From Syntrophaceae bacterium (GTDB taxonomy: Bacteria; Desulfobacterota; Syntrophia; Syntrophales; Smithellaceae), in the NCBI GenBank assembly GCA_018436925.1, contig JAHDKI010000012.1:4324-68323 (forward strand): a stretch of DNA of 64,000 bases, read 5' to 3'. The notes beneath the pieces were generated by a model that saw only the letters and a list, made by a program, of their open reading frames with translations, was not told where the DNA came from and made no database searches. Below, piece by piece: positions 3,046 through 11,122 of this stretch (positions are counted from its first letter, which is position 1; each line of letters starts with the position of its first letter). Made by a program: the position numbers and the translations under genes.

Positions 3046-3873
3046 ATGGTAGTCAGCCGAAACCATCGGGGTGATGTCGATATGCTGAAAGATTTTTCAA
3101 CAAAGTCAGGCAGGATTTCCTGCTGGATCAATCCGCATGATTTCGGCGCCCGCGGACAAAGCCTGGTCTTGATTCCCGGCTCGGGAAGCAACTCATCGGT
3201 GTGGTCGCGCCAGTACGCCAAACTTCACGGACGCTTCAACATCGCGGCGGTCAATCTGCCGGGGCACGGCCGCTCGCGCGGACCGGGAGCCGCTTCGGTT
3301 TTCGACTACGTTTTATGCCTCGAAAACATCCTCGGCGCGCTTGAACTTGAAAAACCCGTTTTGGTCGGCCATTCCCTGGGCGCGGCCATCGCGCTGCTTT
3401 TTGCCGCCACCTGTCCGGAGGCGCTTTCCGGCGTCGTATCCATCGGCGGCGGGTTGAAGATGCCGGTCAATCCGATGATTCTGGAAGGCTTGTCCGCCAA
3501 TCCGTCCGGCACGAAGGAGCTGATCGCCAAATTCTCCATCGCCCCGGCCAATCGGCCGAAAATGCTGCCCGCCATCCAAAAAAGTCTCGATCAGGTCGCA
3601 GCCGACGTTCTTCTGGGCGACCTGACCGCGTGCAGCCGCCTGGACCTGCGCGGACGTCTGGGGGCCATCCGCGTTCCGATTCTGGCCGTCTGCGGCGCTG
3701 AAGACAAAATGACGCCGGTGGCGTCGTCGCAAGATCTTGTCGCAAACGCGGCCGACGCCGAGTTGCTCGTTGTCGAAAACGCCGGACATATGGCAATGAT
3801 AGAAGAGCCCGCCATCGTCAACAAAGCCATTTGCGCGTTTGCCGCAAAGCTGATAAAGGAAACGCCATCGTGA
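3046..3873 (+). CDS. alpha/beta-fold hydrolase
   Basis: 275-aa ORF with a GHSLGA nucleophile elbow and a C-terminal GHM motif. The start could be Met13 (3082). Confidence 0.75.
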   Translation: MVVSRNHRGDVDMLKDFSTKSGRISCWINPHDFGARGQSLVLIPGSGSNSSVWSRQYAKLHGRFNIAAVNLPGHGRSRGPGAASVFDYVLCLENILGALELEKPVLVGHSLGAAIALLFAATCPEALSGVVSIGGGLKMPVNPMILEGLSANPSGTKELIAKFSIAPANRPKMLPAIQKSLDQVAADVLLGDLTACSRLDLRGRLGAIRVPILAVCGAEDKMTPVASSQDLVANAADAELLVVENAGHMAMIEEPAIVNKAICAFAAKLIKETPS

Positions 3874-6259: not shown

Positions 6260-7534
6260 ATGCTGGACATCAAATTTCTAAGACAAAACATTGATTTTGT
6301 GCGAGTCAAAATGGACGAACGGGGCCAGAAGATCGATTTCGACCGGTTTTTGGCCCTCGACGCGAAAAGACGGGATCTTCTTCAAGCTGTGGAAACCTTG
6401 CGCAACGAGCGCAACAGCGTGTCCAAACAGGTGGGGGAACTCAAAAAGAAAAAAGAAGACGCCTCCGAACTCATTGCCAAAATGGGCGATGTCTCGGCCA
6501 AGATCAAGGAATACGACGACACGCTGCGTGTTACCGAAGAAGAACTAAACGCCTTTGTCATGATCGTGCCGAATGTTCAGCACGAATCCGTGCCGCAAGG
6601 AACGGGATCCGAAGACAATCCGGTGGTGCGCACCTGGGGCGAAAAACCGGCCTTCACCTTTGAGCCCAAACAGCATTTCGACCTGGGAGAAGCTCTGGGC
6701 ATCCTCGATTTCGCGCGCGGCGCGAAGATCACCGGCGCGCGCTTTACGCTCTATCGCGGCGCGGGGGCCGCTCTTGAGCGGGCGATTTTCAATTTCATGC
6801 TGGATCTGCACACCACCGAGCACGGCTACACGGAAGTCCTCACGCCGTTTATGGTCAATGCCGACAGCATGACCGGCACCGGTCAGCTGCCGAAATTCAA
6901 GGAAGACCTTTTCAAAATCGAGGGTCTGGAATACTACCTGATCCCAACGGCGGAAGTTCCGGTCACCAACATTTACCGGGATGAAATTCTCGATGAAGAG
7001 ATGCTGCCGGTGTATTATGTGGCCTATTCCCCGTGTTTCCGGGCGGAAGCCGGCTCCTACGGCAAGGACACGCGCGGCCTGATTCGCCAGCATCAGTTCA
7101 ACAAAGTTGAAATGGTCAAGTTCGCCAGGCCGGAAACCTCTTACGACGAACTGGAAAAACTTACCGCCAATGCGGAAGAAGTGCTCAAACGACTGGGCAT
7201 TCCCTTCCGCACGGTCTGTCTGTGTTCGGGAGACCTGGGGTTTTCGTCCGCCAAAACTTACGACGTGGAAGCCTGGATGCCCGGTCAGGATACGTACCGG
7301 GAAATTTCCTCGTGCAGCAACTTCGAGGACTTTCAGGCCAGGCGCGCCGCGATCCGATTCCGGCGCAAAGACACAGGCAAAACCGAATTCGTGCACACAC
7401 TCAACGGCTCCGGCCTCGCAGTCGGCCGAACCGTGGTGGCGGTCCTTGAAAATTATCAGCAGGCCGACGGCAGCGTGATCATTCCGGAGGCGCTGCGACC
7501 GTACATGAGAGGCCTTGAACGGATTACGCCGTAG
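6260..7534 (+). CDS. serS: serine--tRNA ligase
   Basis: Starts [10 protein letters not shown], with a coiled-coil arm and class II motifs ([33 protein letters not shown]). Start moved to Met13 of the ORF. Confidence 0.95.
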
Positions 7535-7726
7535 AACTTTCCCTGTCTTGCCGGATGACATCCGGCCTCCAGGCATCTACCCTGCATCCCATAGGCAGAT
7601 TGAAAAGCCTGCGGGGAACCCGTTTTTAGAATGCCCGATTCGGGCTGGACGCTTTTCCCGGAAAAGCGGAGCCTAAATGACAAACACGGAATCATTTTCC
7701 GCTTTGAGATAAGCTGCGGAAAAACC

Positions 7727-7813
7727 GGCGGGATGGCCGAGTGGTCGAAGGCGGCGGTCTTGACCCGGCATACGCCGGGCGCCCGAAAAACAGGGCGAAA
7801 CCGTTTATTGGTC
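7727..7813 (+). pseudogene. interrupted and truncated tRNA-Ser(TGA)-like copy
   Basis: 7727-7763 matches 8091-8127 of the intact tRNA at 36/37 positions and ends at the anticodon. A 34-nt double-hairpin insert (7764-7797) follows, then aaaccgtt..ggtc, which resembles the anticodon-stem 3' strand and variable arm. There is no T arm or acceptor 3' strand. Confidence 0.75.
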
Positions 7814-7820
7814 TTTGAAA

Positions 7821-8075
7821 ATGCATTATGTTTACATATTGCAAAGCGAGCTGGATAAGGAACTATACGTCGGCATGACGGGAGACCTGAAGCGGCGTTA
7901 CCTGGAACATCAGAGGGGAAATGTTGAAGCGACAAAACGTCGTTTACCCATGAAACTTCTCTGCTATGAAGCATATTTAACAAAAGCGGAAGCAATGCGT
8001 CGGGAAAAATTCCTCAAAAGCAGCGACGGAAGGAAAGATATTCGGAAAAGAATCATCGAAAGCATGATTCAGTAA
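7821..8075 (+). CDS. GIY-YIG (URI-domain) nuclease family protein, YhbQ/COG2827-like
   Basis: The sequence MHYVYILQS...LYVGMTGDLKRRYLEHQRG carries GIY-(10 aa)-YVG and an RR..EH motif. It is visibly AT-richer than its surroundings. The ATG at 7821 lies 6 nt inside the TTG-initiated ORF of the track. Confidence 0.8.
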   Translation: MHYVYILQSELDKELYVGMTGDLKRRYLEHQRGNVEATKRRLPMKLLCYEAYLTKAEAMRREKFLKSSDGRKDIRKRIIESMIQ

Positions 8076-8090
8076 AATTGTAAAGTATCA

Positions 8091-8176
8091 GGAGGGATGG
8101 CCGAGTGGTCGAAGGCGGCGGTCTTGAAAACCGTTGACCGAAAGGTCCGCGGGTTCGAATCCTGCTCCCTCCGCCA
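8091..8176 (+). tRNA. tRNA-Ser (anticodon TGA)
   Basis: Hand-folded cloverleaf with acceptor ggaggga/tccctcc, anticodon loop cttgaaa, a 14-nt variable arm, T arm gcggg-ttcgaat-cctgc and an encoded CCA. Confidence 0.9.
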
Positions 8177-8268
8177 AAAAACTACCCGTGGTTCATAGAA
8201 AGACCGCGGGTTTGGAGGGCAAAGCCCGAAACCCGGCGCATGCCGGGCGAATCCTGCTCCCTCCGCCA
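8177..8268 (+). pseudogene. tRNA-Ser(TGA) 3'-half copy 1 with 35-nt T-loop insert
   Basis: Starts right after the CCA of the tRNA. Order is aaaac.., diverged variable region, ccgcgggtt, 35-nt insert (8213-8247), then cgaatcctgctccctccgcca, which is identical to the tRNA 3' end. Confidence 0.8.
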
Positions 8269-8362
8269 AAAAAAACTACCCGTGGTTCATAGAAAGACCG
8301 CGGGTTTGGAGGGCAAAGCCCGAAACCCGGCGCATGCCGGGCGAATCCTTCTCCCTCCGCCA
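8269..8362 (+). pseudogene. tRNA-Ser(TGA) 3'-half copy 2 with 35-nt T-loop insert
   Basis: Tandem repeat of the previous unit, with two extra A at the start and one G-to-T change in the T stem. Insert at 8307-8341. Confidence 0.8.
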
Positions 8363-8431
8363 GATAATTTTGACTTACGTCTTGAATTATCGGACGTCTT
8401 GTTTTAAAGATACAAGCCTTAACCGGCAAGC

Positions 8432-8526
8432 GGAGAGATGGCTGAGTGGCCGAAAGCGATCGCCTGCTAAGCGATTGTACGCCCTTTAAAGGTGTACCGC
8501 GGGTTCGAATCCCGCTCTCTCCGCCA
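8432..8526 (+). tRNA. tRNA-Ser (anticodon GCT)
   Basis: Hand-folded cloverleaf with acceptor ggagaga/tctctcc, anticodon loop ctgctaa, a 23-nt variable arm, T arm gcggg-ttcgaat-cccgc and an encoded CCA. Confidence 0.9.
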
Positions 8527-8624
8527 TTTAGCGTCAACTGAACCGTGGCGAACTGCAAACCGCGGGTTTGGAGGGCAAAGCCCGAAACCCGGCGCATGCC
8601 GGGCGAATCCCGCTCTCTCCGCCA
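8527..8624 (+). pseudogene. tRNA-Ser(GCT) 3'-half copy with 35-nt T-loop insert
   Basis: Follows the CCA directly. Order is tagcg.., diverged variable region, ccgcgggtt, the same 35-nt insert (8569-8603), then cgaatcccgctctctccgcca, which is identical to the GCT tRNA 3' end. Confidence 0.8.
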
Positions 8625-8668
8625 TTTGAAACACTCTAAACTTATCCCATCCCAAACAACGCCGCCCG

Positions 8669-10420
8669 ATGACCGATTTTTCTGAAAACTTTGTTTTGCT
8701 TGAAACGCTGCGGCGCGATCGCGGAAAAAAAAGAACCCTTTTCTTTGCCGATCCCCTCGACATCATCGAGTGCCGATGCCCGTCCCAGGTCAGCCGATGT
8801 TTCCGGAAAATGGAAACCGCGCGCCGAGACGGCTTCCACCTGGCCGGATTTTTTTCTTATGAATTGGGCTACCTTCTGGAAGAAAGCCTGGCTGCGCTTT
8901 TGCCCCCCGGCGACTTTCCGCTTTTTTGGTTCGGCGTCTACGACAAACCGCAAAGCGCCTCATGCGCACCCAGAGGGGCGGATTTTTATCTTTCCGAGCC
9001 TGCACTCGTTCAGACCCGCGCAAAATACAGCCGGGCCGTGGGCAAAATCAGGGATTTGATCGCAGCCGGCGATACCTACCAGATCAACTACACCACCCGG
9101 GTTCAGTTTCAGTTCGCAGGCGATGTCGCGGCATTCTACGACCGGCTTAAAAAAAACCAGAAAGTATCCTATTCGGCGCTGGTGCGATATTGCGGCAACG
9201 CTCTCGTCTCGCTGTCGCCGGAACTGTTCTTCCGGACCGATCGAAACGGCCGCATCACCGTCAAACCCATGAAGGGAACGGCGCCTTTGCACACACCGGC
9301 CGACTGGCTGAAGAAAGACCCCAAAAACACCAGCGAAAATGTCATGATCGTCGATCTGCTGCGCAATGACCTGGGCAGAATCTGCCTGCCCGGTTCGGTG
9401 CAAGTCCGCAAGCTGTTCGACATCGAAAACTACGAAACCCTCCGCCAGATGACTTCCACCGTGACCGGCAAACTTCACCCCGGCCTGACCATCGAAACCC
9501 TGGTGAAAAGCCTTTTCCCCTGCGGCTCGGTGACGGGAGCGCCCAAAATCCGCAGCATGGGAATCATTCATGACCTGGAAGACGCCCCGCGCCGCATCTA
9601 TACCGGCGCCATCGGCTATTTCGCCCCGAGCGGCGAAGCGGTTTTCAACGTCGCCATCCGGACGCTTGATCTGCGGCGGAAAGAATCCGGACGGTATGAT
9701 GCGACGATGGGTGTCGGAAGCGGAATCGTCTTCGATTCCCGGGCGGATGAGGAGTATGACGAGTGTCTGCTTAAGGCGAGGTTTCTCCAAAACGCCATGC
9801 CGTCCTTCGGGCTTATCGAAACGCTGCGGGTTGAAACGGGGCGCGTTCGTAGGCTTTCGGATCATCTGCGCCGTCTTCGGGCCTCCGCCGACTTTTTCGG
9901 CATTCCCTGCCCGGCGGGCGCGATCAGAAATGCGATCCGGCTTTATAGCGCGACACTTCCGGACATTGCGAAGCTTCGCCTGATTCTGTCCGCCGACGGA
10001 ACCTTCAGGCTCGAATCAGGCCGCCTGCCGGAGACCCCGTCGGACATTCCAACGATCGCCTTGTCCTCTGTCCGGATGTCGTCTGCCGATCCGTTTATCC
10101 GCCATAAAACGACTTTCCGCAAGGCGTACGACGACGAGTTCGCTAAATACTCGGCGAAAGGGTTTTTCGACGTCATTTTTTTAAACGAAAAAGGACAGGT
10201 CACCGAAGGGGCGATTTCCAACCTCTTTGTCCGGATTCGCGGGCGCTGGTATACGCCGCCGGTTTCCTGCGGCTTGTTGCCGGGGATTCAGCGGCGGACC
10301 CTGATGAAAAAATGGTCTGTCCGGGAAAGAATTTTGTCCCCGGACGACCTTCGCCTTGCCGATCAAATCGTGCTGTCCAACGCGGTCCGGGGCATAACCG
10401 AAGTAAGATTGAGAGGATGA
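8669..10420 (+). CDS. pabB: bifunctional chorismate-binding enzyme (aminodeoxychorismate synthase component I-like) / class IV aminotransferase (ADC lyase-like)
   Basis: The N-terminal two-thirds carries chorismate-utilising motifs (SPELFF, PMKGT, GSVTGAPK, GVGSGIV). The C-terminal ~200 aa look like the PabC/class IV fold (HKTT..Y, EGAISNLF). Confidence 0.8.
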   Translation: MTDFSENFVLLETLRRDRGKKRTLFFADPLDIIECRCPSQVSRCFRKMETARRDGFHLAGFFSYELGYLLEESLAALLPPGDFPLFWFGVYDKPQSASCAPRGADFYLSEPALVQTRAKYSRAVGKIRDLIAAGDTYQINYTTRVQFQFAGDVAAFYDRLKKNQKVSYSALVRYCGNALVSLSPELFFRTDRNGRITVKPMKGTAPLHTPADWLKKDPKNTSENVMIVDLLRNDLGRICLPGSVQVRKLFDIENYETLRQMTSTVTGKLHPGLTIETLVKSLFPCGSVTGAPKIRSMGIIHDLEDAPRRIYTGAIGYFAPSGEAVFNVAIRTLDLRRKESGRYDATMGVGSGIVFDSRADEEYDECLLKARFLQNAMPSFGLIETLRVETGRVRRLSDHLRRLRASADFFGIPCPAGAIRNAIRLYSATLPDIAKLRLILSADGTFRLESGRLPETPSDIPTIALSSVRMSSADPFIRHKTTFRKAYDDEFAKYSAKGFFDVIFLNEKGQVTEGAISNLFVRIRGRWYTPPVSCGLLPGIQRRTLMKKWSVRERILSPDDLRLADQIVLSNAVRGITEVRLRG

Positions 10421-10489
10421 TCTTTTTATTTTGCATCGGCCCGATAATATGCTATAGGGCTCCTTCGTTCATTCCAGGAGATTTTTCAT

Positions 10490-10566
10490 GCGCCTGTAGC
10501 TCAGCTGGATAGAGCATCAGACTACGAATCTGGGGGCCGTAGGTTCGAATCCTACCAGGCGCGCCA
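10490..10566 (+). tRNA. tRNA-Arg (anticodon ACG)
   Basis: Hand-folded cloverleaf with acceptor gcgcctg/caggcgc, D arm gctc-agctggata-gagc, anticodon loop ctacgaa, T arm gtagg-ttcgaat-cctac and CCA. Confidence 0.9.
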
Positions 10567-10575
10567 TCCGGTTTA

Positions 10576-10608
10576 AAAGCCGGCTTTGAAAAAAAAGCCG
10601 GCTTTTTT
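10576..10608 (+). terminator. rho-independent terminator after tRNA-Arg
   Basis: aaagccggcttt - gaaaaa - aaagccggcttt stem followed by a T6 run. Confidence 0.7.
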
Positions 10609-10633
10609 CATTTTTCAGCCTCTTGAAATTCCC

Positions 10634-10675
10634 TTGACTTCATCGACCGGTTTATTTATTTTGCATACTAAATAA
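10634..10675 (+). promoter_or_regulatory. candidate sigma70 promoter with overlapping palindromic operator upstream of the MarR gene
   Basis: TTGACT (10634-10639), 17-nt spacer, TATTTT (10657-10662). A perfect 7-bp inverted repeat TTATTTA-N10-TAAATAA (10652-10675) overlaps the -10 element. Confidence 0.4.
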
Positions 10676-10693
10676 TCAGGTCGGGAAGGATCC

Positions 10694-11122
10694 ATGCGAA
10701 GTTACCAGGACGTGATTTTATTCATCCTCAGCAAAGCCTACCAGAAAGTTTACGCCACTTTCAAAGCCAAGACGCAACTTTACGGAATGACGCCGATACA
10801 GGCGCTAGTGTTGCACGCCCTGTATGAAGAGGAAGGGCTTTCCGCCGGAGAACTCGGCAAAAGGCTGGTTTTGGACGGCGCGACCTTGTCCGGCGTTTTA
10901 GACCGGATGGCCGACGGCGGATGGATTACAAAAAATGCAGCCAAAGACGATCGTCGCGTTTTAAACATTCAACTGACGGAAAAATCCCGTCTTTACCGGG
11001 ATACGTTTCTCAAAGATACTGAAAAACTGCATTCGGACGTGCTGTCTTCTCTTTCGGCAGAGGAAAAACGATTGCTCATCCGCATGCTCAAGGATCTGCG
11101 CAAGGAATCCGACGCCGGATGA
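10694..11122 (+). CDS. MarR family transcriptional regulator
   Basis: 142-aa winged-helix pattern (LTPIQALVLHALYEEEGLSAGELGKRL..DRR). ATGA overlap with the next gene. Confidence 0.85.
   Translation: MRSYQDVILFILSKAYQKVYATFKAKTQLYGMTPIQALVLHALYEEEGLSAGELGKRLVLDGATLSGVLDRMADGGWITKNAAKDDRRVLNIQLTEKSRLYRDTFLKDTEKLHSDVLSSLSAEEKRLLIRMLKDLRKESDAG

Follow-up and report, generated by a model that had tools for sequence, protein, structure and literature searches.

A double-hairpin module in truncated tRNA genes and its possible place in small GIY-YIG nuclease cassettes

A 64-kb stretch of Syntrophaceae DNA (hereafter the window) carries four copies of a GC-rich double hairpin of 34 or 35 nt, each at a tRNA loop position. 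What is so short an element doing there, and how does it come to sit in tRNA sequence? A first-pass annotation, made from the window's sequence, described it as a tiny orientation-independent insert with a preference for the loops of tRNA-Ser. Comparison with relatives retains much of that description but changes what the insert appears to be part of.

Anatomy of the tRNA-Ser locus

An exact search found the 35-mer TGGAGGGCAAAGCCCGAAACCCGGCGCATGCCGGG on the + strand at 8213, 8307 and 8569 and nowhere else in the 64-kb window, while the 34-nt version, CCCGGCATACGCCGGGCGCCCGAAAAACAGGGCG, occupies 7764-7797. The 16-nt hairpin of the 34-nt copy agrees with the T-loop hairpin at 15/16 positions in reverse complement and at 13/16 in the same orientation. 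When up to one mismatch was allowed, CCCGGCNNNNGCCGGG matched five times against 0.99 expected, a count reached in 0/100 shuffles; four of these matches are the double-hairpin sites and the fifth is a one-mismatch match at 159. A covariance model (R1), trained on relatives alone with the window copies left out, reported only the four sites at E<0.05 in 64 kb, the next match having E>1, so the earlier statement that there is no fifth copy held. Under R1 the 7764 copy scored 29.2 bits (E=3e-4) on the + strand and 28.1 bits on the - strand (7763-7796), and the T-loop copy at 8213-8247 scored 19 bits on either strand. Folding prediction formed both small hairpins as originally described. 

The first-pass annotation had not remarked that every copy lies within a truncated tRNA-Ser piece beside an intact tRNA-Ser gene. 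None is inside an intact tRNA, and the four are grouped at two tRNA-Ser genes. All of the features below are on the + strand. The first piece is a displaced 5' fragment of tRNA-Ser(UGA), nt 1-36 (7727-7763), which agrees at 36/37 positions with the opening stretch of the intact gene at 8091. It spans the acceptor 5' strand, the D arm, the anticodon stem 5' strand and the loop up to the anticodon, and local alignment places its junction in the anticodon loop. It reads GGCGGG in the window and GGAGGG in strain contig L008. The module copy at 7764-7797 follows, with a canonical first hairpin (CCCGGC-ATAC-GCCGGG) and a diverged second one (CGCCC-GAAAAACA-GGGCG) that has an 8-nt loop; in the ortholog of this copy in L022, hairpin 2 is kept by compensatory changes (CGACCG...CGGTCG). 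After the module come tRNA nt 37-44 (AAACCGTT; 7798-7805), the 3' side of the anticodon loop and stem, and there tRNA similarity stops. Relatives retain 6-15 nt, typically 6-9, of tRNA on this near side of the module. The interval from the 5' fragment to the intact tRNA-Ser(UGA) (8091-8176; ARAGORN; Rfam tRNA, 59.3 bits) contains an 84-aa GIY-YIG nuclease gene of UPF0213/YhbQ type (7821-8075; Pfam PF01541), also new to this analysis, which ends 15 nt before that tRNA.

The other three copies split the T loop of 3' fragments that follow the intact tRNA-Ser(UGA) and tRNA-Ser(GCU), in units that have no ORF. Unit 1 (8177-8268; module 8213-8247) consists, in order, of a spacer, the T-stem 5' strand (CCGCGGGTT), the module, CGAATCC, the acceptor 3' strand and CCA; its homologs in L076 and L022 have a canonical module at the same position. 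Unit 2 (8269-8362; module 8307-8341) is a tandem copy, 98% identical to unit 1. Unit 3 (8527-8624; module 8569-8603) comes after the intact tRNA-Ser(GCU) (8432-8526; ARAGORN; Rfam tRNA, 61.9 bits). Sequence comparison with unit 1 revealed a 52-nt block, including the module, that is 100% identical in the two, with differing spacer and acceptor parts, and the flanks of unit 3 that are of tRNA origin match the local tRNA. The window holds one full cassette at an anticodon-loop site (7727-8090) and three ORF-less T-loop units, and the locus adjoins serS. Scans of 7500-8700 gave no promoter-like site, and terminator-like sites were not above shuffles. An Rfam 15 search (E<=1) of 7000-11000 left the modules and units unmatched and returned only tRNA matches, apart from 'Plastid' matches that were discarded as antisense tRNA artefacts.

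The module family and its target sites

In its canonical form the module is 36 nt long, with two 7-bp GC hairpins and loops of ATRC and GNAT, and the window copies are diverged, partly decayed members of this conserved family. Across 38 distinct copies, 98.7% of cells are paired compared to 85.9% in shuffles, and 8/14 pairs are altered on both sides, which 0/500 shuffles equalled. Both hairpins are maintained in evolution, with compensatory changes in both. The module is also dyad-symmetric (self-reverse-complement identity 0.75 vs 0.32 in controls), and its R1 scores are nearly equal on the two strands. It is because of this symmetry that the window appeared to hold two orientations. Both window versions fit the canonical order on the + strand, with the ATRC loop first and the GYAT loop second. 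Orientation independence consequently stands for the family, where T-loop modules with asymmetric loops are sense to the tRNA strand in seven cases and antisense in seven, but not for the window, in which dyad symmetry bars calling an orientation.

A pattern scan of 185,579 species genomes gave 50 matches. Five were dismissed as chance, being in coding DNA of high-GC actinobacteria with imperfect stems, and 45 were taken as real copies. The sites are narrowly defined: 36/50 matches are at GGTTC|GAATCC or its complement, 4/50 are in the anticodon loop of Ser-CGA, and no fewer than two others are beside tRNA genes. The junction is always after loop nt 3, at TTC|GAAT in the T loop and at CTC|GAAA or CTT|GAAA in the anticodon loop of tRNA-Ser(NGA). 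Together with the location of 42-43 of the 45 real copies in or beside tRNA sequence, these junctions bear out the idea of a discrete insert at tRNA loop-coding positions, and copies in ordinary intergenic DNA were not seen in any number across the genomes scanned; the copies L046 and L061 have no tRNA nearby. A preference for tRNA-Ser, on the other hand, did not survive the wider sample. Beside Ser, tRNA genes for Leu, Tyr, Val, Thr, Gln, Pro, Arg, Lys and Ala are carriers, and it is at the anticodon loop alone that the site is confined to Ser, where CUNGAAA is similar to the T loop UUCGAAU and so accounts for the restriction. A 2-bp (CG) target duplication fits the arrangement TTC-G...C-GAAT and two informative non-CG sites (L011b and L046), but does not fit L036 or the window's anticodon copy. 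Such a duplication is what a GIY-YIG 2-nt staggered cut would be expected to leave.

Hosts of the module belong to several phyla and include Patescibacteria, Smithella/Syntrophaceae and some other MAGs, several of which hold copies at different tRNAs (2 loci each). A scan of viral sequences with the canonical pattern gave 0 matches, and a metagenome scan with the window-type variant returned the same locus alone (L081, 99.4% identical) and no new context. Nor is the module an autonomous insert: it is accompanied by partial duplication of a tRNA whose intact gene lies alongside, and usually by the 84-aa GIY-YIG gene.

Close relatives vary at these places. Within the species, the number of units after tRNA-Ser(UGA) is one in L005, two in the window, L001 and L083, and three in L002. 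A unit present in L011 and L013 but absent in L012 has its limits exactly at 20-nt repeats. At the orthologous serS locus of L076, serS is followed by tRNA-Ser(UGA) without the cassette or the GCU unit, unlike the window and L022, which carry the cassette there; the GCU unit is diverged in L022. Tandem cassettes occur in L018-20 and L041, the latter having an anticodon-loop cassette and a T-loop cassette in copies of one tRNA. A look-up with the exact window SerS, seeking a same-species allele without the cassette, returned one contig with the layout of the window. The differences in presence and absence could all be deletions between direct repeats instead of insertions. In addition, cassette and units stand at orthologous places in species with saturated synonymous sites, with ORF and stems conserved, which fits long vertical residence and selection, possibly with a host function, as well as ongoing mobility.

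The GIY-YIG gene and readings of the cassette

The window's 84-aa ORF matches PF01541 over residues 1-70 (E=4.8e-15), PDB 1zg2 (UPF0213 protein BH0048; E=1.1e-6) and PDB 1ywl (E=3.5e-3). Its protein has 122 homologs, many annotated Smithella or Patescibacteria, and proteins from these two groups are ~65% identical. The ORF is under strong purifying selection (dN/dS 0.02-0.08 where dS was estimable). The product is a bare catalytic domain without an appended DNA-binding domain and has no room for a zinc-finger domain of the Slx1 type. TIGR01453 scored it at 17 bits vs a cut-off of 56, a PHROG search gave no match, NCBIfam gave no useful family, and no curated homing-endonuclease model matched it. 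At all eight protein-seeded loci a tRNA-Ser gene lies <=65 nt downstream, and a module-bearing tRNA fragment lies upstream wherever upstream sequence existed. The canonical cassette is composed of a 36-bp dyad-symmetric double hairpin, an 84-aa UPF0213/Slx1-type GIY-YIG gene and a duplicated part of the tRNA. Since part of the tRNA is duplicated, an intact tRNA gene is rebuilt beside the disrupted piece. The rebuilt tRNA has an intact GGTTCGAATCC and anticodon loop, and only the displaced copy is split by the module.

A precedent for such a gene exists in phage T4, whose GIY-YIG homing endonuclease SegB recognises tRNA genes at their T-loop motif (PMC2330249). The reading we favour, with about even confidence, is that the module is a cis-acting DNA element of small, selfish, SegB-like GIY-YIG cassettes in tRNA genes. 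From sequence comparison we infer how such a cassette would cut and spread. The nuclease would cut tRNA-gene DNA at the centre of the loop-coding sequence, as SegB does at GGTTCRANTCC, and probably recognises a stem-loop or cruciform, less probably plain duplex. Repair would then copy the cassette from a filled allele, the flanking tRNA sequence providing homology on either side. As the target persists in the rebuilt tRNA, the process could recur, and such recurrence, or unequal recombination between the tRNA-derived direct repeats, may produce tandem arrays and copy-number variation. The hairpins would either interrupt the recognition motif of the non-functional copy or be the site at which the nuclease binds and a branch forms. 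The ORF is presumably expressed from the tRNA promoter, and ORF-less units may have arisen by deletion or be non-autonomous copies that the same process maintains. Dyad symmetry, equal strand scores and the 7:7 orientations speak for this DNA-level logic. The variation among relatives in unit number and in the presence of units and cassettes, the tandem cassettes, the copies at different tRNAs of one MAG and the similarity of the proteins between Patescibacteria and Smithella are read as signs of mobility. The bare catalytic domain of the protein, unlike known homing endonucleases, and retention of the target in the rebuilt tRNA, unlike classical homing, count against the cassette reading, as does the partial decay of the window's own copies.

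It is also conceivable, though we consider it unlikely, that the hairpins work in the transcript as a stable three-way junction in an arm of the tRNA piece, an alternative already raised in the first-pass annotation. In this role they might protect or delimit the nuclease mRNA and tRNA precursor, as an exonuclease block, a processing signal or a terminator without a U tract, or might act as a tRNA mimic. The ORF always shares a transcription unit with the tRNA, at a distance of 2-65 nt, with the module at its far end in both architectures, and the tRNA kept on the near side is enough to pair part of the arm stem. Fragments reaching far enough to close that stem were considered and set aside, as too few stem bases are retained (often just 2-5) and closure is weak. 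In the lowest-energy fold of the GCU unit the T stem encloses both hairpins, and in the UGA unit the module's GGAGGG pairs with the acceptor 3' strand in a helix ending GCCA (-43 kcal/mol, z -4.5). However, for the 65-nt units the predicted folds do not surpass those of shuffled sequence (z -1.0 and -1.2). Hairpin stems are conserved while loops change between the window and L022, and a lean towards G.U among non-Watson-Crick pairs on the tRNA strand (~5 vs 1-2 A.C, counted by eye and too few to decide) hints weakly at RNA. Across the family, the ATRC and GNAT loops are instead conserved as a dyad, which points to recognition of the duplex or of both strands; they are not of stable tetraloop types, and with both orientations equally common the loops in the RNA vary from copy to copy. 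The module is not followed by a U tract and has no Rfam match. A function in RNA also leaves unexplained why the module is found only in duplicated tRNA pieces, at the loop centre.

Somewhat less probable, in our estimate, is an independent palindromic mini-element, in the manner of REP sequences or of mitochondrial GC clusters and double-hairpin elements, that enters loop-coding palindromes by host processes, with the GIY-YIG gene merely sharing its niche. An ORF is missing from the neighbourhood of over half of the module sites, including three of the four in the window. Single hairpins occur in the D loop in L026, a hairpin is nested within a hairpin loop in L011, and the two copies away from tRNA would suit such an element. 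On viral contig L082, a related GIY-YIG gene is flanked by tRNA repeats without a module. On the other side, the module has the same relative position at 8/8 protein-seeded loci, and a GIY-YIG homolog lies within ~300 nt at ~20/50 module-seeded loci, far above chance, and elsewhere in three more. ORF-less units are found in lineages that also hold ORF-bearing ones, and L063, a 3'-type unit with the ORF inside, is an intermediate form. Moreover, plain insertion would not produce a partial tRNA duplication.

We give little credence to the possibility that released 3' units are stable tRNA-Ser mimics, or that the 5' fragment and hairpins form an RNA cofactor directing or restraining the nuclease. 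The helix in which the module's GGAGGG rebuilds an acceptor end finishing in GCCA is encoded next to serS.

Remnants of integrase islands are very improbable. Decayed att sites in the anticodon or T loop, with the hairpin repeat inserted later, would account for an intact tRNA followed by a direct repeat of its 3' part, and tyrosine integrases, which cross over in these loops and leave a duplicated tRNA piece, are known to prefer the same tRNA sublocations, as Williams reportedly described in 2002. Yet gene calls covering 6 kb upstream and 3 kb downstream include no integrase, the 'island' would measure only ~70-360 bp (the window's direct repeats bound only ~70 nt), the same module and small ORF occur at many tRNAs in several phyla, and 5' fragments are as regular as 3' fragments. 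A group I intron was rejected outright, with no ribozyme by Rfam, only 57 + 15 nt of non-coding sequence, and only 8 nt of tRNA after the 5' fragment, hence no complete spliceable tRNA.

Known systems and implications

SegB is a close comparison for the favoured cassette reading. In both cases a GIY-YIG gene lies among tRNA genes and is present or absent between relatives, and the SegB site holds the T-loop motif GGTTCRANTCC, the centre of which carries the module here (PMC2330249). However, SegB is a larger phage protein, and its 27-bp site implies a DNA-binding capacity, whereas the cassette encodes a bare 84-aa UPF0213 domain in cellular genomes. SegB is accompanied by neither a double hairpin nor partial duplication of a tRNA, and its homing was shown experimentally, whereas the cassette is known from sequence alone; the target, moreover, is regenerated within the cassette. 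More generally, the cassette shares with free-standing genes of the I-TevI/SegB type the GIY-YIG domain and presence or absence at a conserved locus, but not an appended DNA-binding domain or target destruction. By sequence, the window's ORF falls among the UPF0213, YhbQ and YazA proteins (PDB 1zg2 and 1ywl), which are grouped in one family with Slx1, a structure-selective nuclease (PMC7017083). Slx1's selectivity would fit a putative branched or hairpin DNA substrate for the cassette, although the bacterial UPF0213 members have no established function and the window ORF has no Slx1 zinc finger and no known partner. To our knowledge, E. coli yhbQ does not adjoin a tRNA gene.

Other short elements resemble the module in part. 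Like palindromic mini-elements, it occurs in either orientation and has two conserved hairpins. REP/BIME sequences with RAYT (REPtrons) are short GC-rich palindromes on which the product of a nuclease-type gene, present in single copy, presumably acts, and here too GC-rich palindromes are dispersed with most copies ORF-less. RAYTs, however, are Y1 HUH transposases, and REPs are intergenic and numerous, with no tRNA-loop specificity and no target duplication. Double-hairpin elements (DHEs) are known from chytrid and fission-yeast mitochondria (PMC10085805, citing Paquin et al. 2000), and short GC-rich elements form the GC clusters of yeast mitochondria (PMC4478555). Both are GC-rich, with two adjacent hairpins, potentially mobile, near-identical between species and sometimes in RNA genes, but they are mitochondrial and mostly intergenic, and neither tRNA-loop targeting nor partial target duplication is reported for them. 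DHEs may in addition be associated with endonuclease ORF junctions. Group I introns interrupt the anticodon loops of bacterial tRNAs, sometimes with a homing endonuclease gene, and are common in Patescibacteria (PMC13011429). The cassette likewise places an intervening sequence, sometimes with a nuclease gene, in a tRNA anticodon loop, but here the interrupted tRNA is truncated and unspliceable, and a duplicate supplies its function. The survey of tRNA introns in Patescibacteria does not mention the module or cassette, and our literature search found no prior description of a tRNA-loop double hairpin with a GIY-YIG gene.

If the cassette reading is true, these loci would represent minimal selfish elements of a widespread kind, so far unnoticed, in Patescibacteria, Syntrophales and other lineages. 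An 84-aa nuclease with a 36-bp palindrome would be able to colonise essential tRNA genes and spare the host, since partial duplication rebuilds the gene. This would give the UPF0213/YhbQ branch of the GIY-YIG/Slx1 superfamily its first biological context, and a very small nuclease with a defined target, between positions 3 and 4 of a 7-nt loop-coding sequence. It would also explain one recurrent source of partial tRNA genes and of mistaken tRNA calls in genomes and MAGs, as well as assembly breaks and copy-number variation at tRNA-Ser loci.

tRNA-Ser pieces and modules in the window

Downstream of serS, which ends at 7534, the window carries two intact tRNA-Ser genes, tRNA-Ser(UGA) at 8091–8176 and tRNA-Ser(GCU) at 8432–8526 (ARAGORN, Rfam). 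The first-pass annotation had placed its double-hairpin modules within tRNA loop positions; this holds for truncated tRNA-Ser copies, but the modules lie outside the intact genes. A 5′ fragment (7727–7763, tRNA nucleotides 1–36) is followed by a module (7764–7797, CCCGGCATACGCCGGGCGCCCGAAAAACAGGGCG, as first described) and by tRNA nucleotides 37–44. Between this fragment and the intact tRNA is an 84-aa GIY-YIG ORF (7821–8075; domain E=4.8e-15). Three 3′ units follow the intact genes (8177–8268, 8269–8362, and 8527–8624), each consisting of a spacer, the T-stem 5′ strand, a module set into the T loop and, after CGAATCC, the acceptor 3′ strand with CCA. The sequence details given by the first-pass annotation were reproduced: the 35-mer TGGAGGGCAAAGCCCGAAACCCGGCGCATGCCGGG is exact at 8213, 8307, and 8569, both predicted hairpins fold as stated, and the 16-nt hairpins agree at 15/16 positions in reverse complement (13/16 in the same orientation). 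A pattern search of the window with CCCGGCNNNNGCCGGG and at most one mismatch returned five matches, including the four reported sites, versus 0.99 expected (0/100 shuffles).

The tRNA-derived parts of each unit agree with the local tRNA. Because a 52-nt block that includes the module is identical in the UGA and GCU units, recent conversion between them is suggested. Rfam matches to “Plastid-psbl-rps4” and “Plastid-ycf2” below the gathering score (8126–8173, 8467–8523, and 8538–8621, minus strand) are the antisense of the tRNA genes and one 3′ unit, and were not retained as separate features.

Structure and targets of the module family

The module is a conserved, structured, and dyad-symmetric element. 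Conservation of two hairpins among homologous copies had been proposed as a check, and 38 distinct modules were 98.7% paired versus 85.9% in shuffles, with changes on both sides at 8 of 14 pairs. None of 500 shuffles attained these pairing and covariation values, and pairing was lost when partners were slid. Part of the invariance stems from the search pattern, while free positions covary fully. A covariance model built from relatives, with the window left out, found only the four reported sites at E<0.05 (next E>1); the window copies are therefore diverged family members. The anticodon copy has kept hairpin 1 and changed hairpin 2; the T-loop copies have kept hairpin 2 and shortened hairpin 1. 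A canonical module occupies the corresponding place in L076, the orthologous locus of another Smithella. Compared with the window, locus L022 has conserved stems and different loops, and compensatory changes preserve hairpin 2 in the anticodon copy.

Self-reverse-complement identity is 0.75 (random hairpin pairs, 0.32), the ATRC of loop 1 complements the GYAT that is frequent in loop 2, and strand scores of the covariance model in the window are nearly equal (29.2/28.1 and 19.0/19.2 bits). The “reverse-complement arrangement” of the first-pass annotation is thus visible in the sequence but accounted for by this symmetry. Both orientations relative to the tRNA do occur in the wider family: where a GAAT loop 2 makes orientation readable, seven modules are sense and seven antisense.

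The canonical 36-nt module, defined from relatives' hairpins, is G-YCCSGC-ATRC-GCSGGR-C followed by G-YCCSGC-GNAT-GCSGGR-C. A scan with GGCATRCGCCNNNNGYCCNNCGNNTGNNGGRC of 185,579 species, each represented by one genome, yielded 50 loci, five of which lie in Acidimicrobiia, Nocardia, and Thermoleophilaceae coding DNA, have imperfect stems, and were rejected as chance matches. GGTTC|GAATCC or its complement, the T-loop centre, flanks 36 of the remaining 45; GACTC|GAAATC, from the anticodon loop of tRNA-Ser(CGA), flanks four; and other tRNA sequence holds or adjoins two or three more. The many tRNA-unrelated copies considered as a counter-case were not seen, as only two modules (L046 and L061) have no tRNA nearby. 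Serine is the commonest partner, in line with the preference first noted, but Leu, Tyr, Val, Thr, Gln, Pro, Arg, Lys, and Ala tRNAs are also used. Hosts are labelled as Patescibacteria (several classes), Smithella/Syntrophaceae, and some “uncultured Gammaproteobacteria” MAGs.

The modules occupy the centre of the loop-coding sequence in duplicated tRNA pieces that adjoin intact tRNA genes. When fragments were aligned to the neighbouring intact tRNA, the junction in either arm fell between bases 3 and 4 of the 7-nt loop, as TTC|GAAT for the T loop and as CTC|GAAA or CTT|GAAA for the anticodon loop of tRNA-Ser; in the window and L022 it is ambiguous by 1–2 bases, and exact excision gives A36|A37. 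Because its anticodon loop resembles a T loop, tRNA-Ser(NGA) is the only tRNA hit there.

Some loci carry variants. In a Patescibacteria-like locus (L026, 2380–2830), two tRNA-Ser 5′ fragments carry single GC hairpins (CCCCGGYATGCGCGGGG plus TTGAAA) inserted in the D loop, and the locus also has the double hairpin in the anticodon loop. The anticodon-loop module at L011 2921–2978 (also L012 835–892) is 58 nt long, with an extra hairpin, CCCCG-GCGAATG-CGGGG, nested in the loop of hairpin 2; hairpins can thus insert into hairpin loops. ARAGORN calls of a tRNA-Ser with anticodon ACT (L078 334–422) and a second tRNA-Pro (L080 2883–2959, overlapping a module) lie at or beside module-bearing tRNA sequence and look like false predictions caused by such fragments.

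The nuclease gene and signs of gain and loss of units

The module is linked to a small GIY-YIG gene under selection. About 20 of the 50 scan loci have a GIY-YIG homolog no more than about 300 nt from the module, and three more have one elsewhere in the locus. Searching at E<=1e-5 gave 122 homologs of the ORF, with 75–82% identity in Smithella-like bacteria and about 60–68% in Patescibacteria. The ORF is under strong purifying selection, with dN/dS of 0.02–0.08 where dS was estimable (synonymous sites are saturated between the window and relatives). The protein matches the solved UPF0213 proteins BH0048 and EF2693, from a family to which YhbQ and YazA also belong and which has the structure-selective nuclease Slx1 as a relative (PMC7017083). 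The protein carries no additional domain, and neither PHROG nor curated homing-endonuclease models gave a match.

Neighbourhoods were examined for seven of the 122 homologs, which were selected for the length of their contigs. A tRNA-Ser gene lies 2–65 nt downstream in all seven, and a tRNA fragment with a double hairpin lies upstream wherever upstream sequence is available. In Smithella relatives this fragment stops within the tRNA-Ser(CGA) or tRNA-Ser(UGA) anticodon loop, and in Patescibacteria it extends to the T loop. Cassettes with the ORF are in tandem in L018–20; L041 also has a tandem of two identical ones in copies of a single tRNA, one occupying the anticodon loop and the other the T loop, and in L063 the ORF is within a 3′-type unit. 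Intact tRNA-Ser genes of relatives often precede ORF-less 3′ units of the window kind (one in L014, two in L016, three in L015).

The module varies by indels and copy number. A 3′ unit behind tRNA-Ser(GGA), whose limits coincide exactly with 20-nt repeats, is present in L011 and L013 and not in L012. In L076, tRNA-Ser(UGA) directly follows serS without a cassette, and tRNA-Ser(GCU) has no unit behind it. Contigs with an identical ORF, from digester metagenomes and one Smithellaceae MAG, share the window's layout around it. The tandem unit behind tRNA-Ser(UGA) occurs once in L005, twice in the window, L001, and L083, and three times in L002. In L002 (6560–6794), from the same species, tRNA-Ser(GCU) lacks a 3′ unit, a tRNA-Arg(ACG) unlike the window's tRNA-Arg follows about 40 nt later, and the pabB-like gene (window 8669–10420) is missing, either through strain rearrangement or through chimeric assembly at the tRNA repeat.

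The tRNA bases kept after the anticodon-loop module (GAAATC/GAAACC; window 7797–7820) can pair with GATTT/GGTTT just upstream of the ORF's ATG; these hairpins are weak (−1.8 to −6.4 kcal/mol; 6/9 loci, namely the window and equivalents in L011, L014, L018, L064, and L079) and could affect translation start. A predicted viral IMG/VR contig (L082, 1450–1830) has a 50% identical GIY-YIG ORF whose flanks are 40-nt direct repeats of the 3′ half of a tRNA (AACCAGAAGGTCGGGAGTTCGAGTCCCCCCGGGCGCACCA); no double hairpin was found there and ARAGORN called no tRNA.

Possible origin of the cassettes

Our leading interpretation, held with roughly even confidence, is that the nuclease cuts tRNA-gene DNA at the loop-coding centre, probably recognizing a stem-loop or cruciform. 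Repair using tRNA homology would copy the cassette in, the site in the non-functional tRNA copy would be interrupted or marked by the hairpins, and ORF-less units would be derivatives. Functionally, the nearest precedent is SegB of T4, a free-standing GIY-YIG homing endonuclease whose recognition site includes the tRNA T-loop motif GGTTCRANTCC and which leaves 2-nt 3′ overhangs (PMC2330249).

The main rival, a role at the RNA level as a three-way junction, end protector, or tRNA mimic, seems unlikely: presumed co-transcription and predicted GGAGGG–acceptor pairing in the window favour it, but both orientations are equally used and the dyad loops are conserved. RNA of the UGA unit is predicted to fold into an acceptor-like helix with GCCA at its end (−43 kcal/mol, z −4.5). 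Diverged hairpin 1 of the T-loop module starts with TGGAGGG, a complement of CCCTCC(G)CCA in the acceptor 3′ strand of its own unit (8213–8268, 8307–8362), and UGA units with this complementarity are at the locus directly after serS. TGGAGGGC is kept in L022 (about 3490–3530) despite differing neighbouring loops. In the UGA spacer (8183–8211), ACCCGTGGTT pairs with the following T-stem strand GACCGCGGGT in a predicted 10-bp hairpin, and the L022 and L076 spacers can be aligned to this one (GCGGTTTGATCAGG). It is rather improbable that the module is a palindromic mini-element unrelated to the nuclease, and decayed integrase att sites are very improbable.

The module has no Rfam model, and a recent survey of Patescibacteria tRNA introns mentions neither it nor the cassette; full-text searches of an incomplete body of literature returned no description of the arrangement. 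Within that coverage, the cassette is classed as joining two known kinds, a free-standing GIY-YIG homing gene and a double-hairpin palindromic element.
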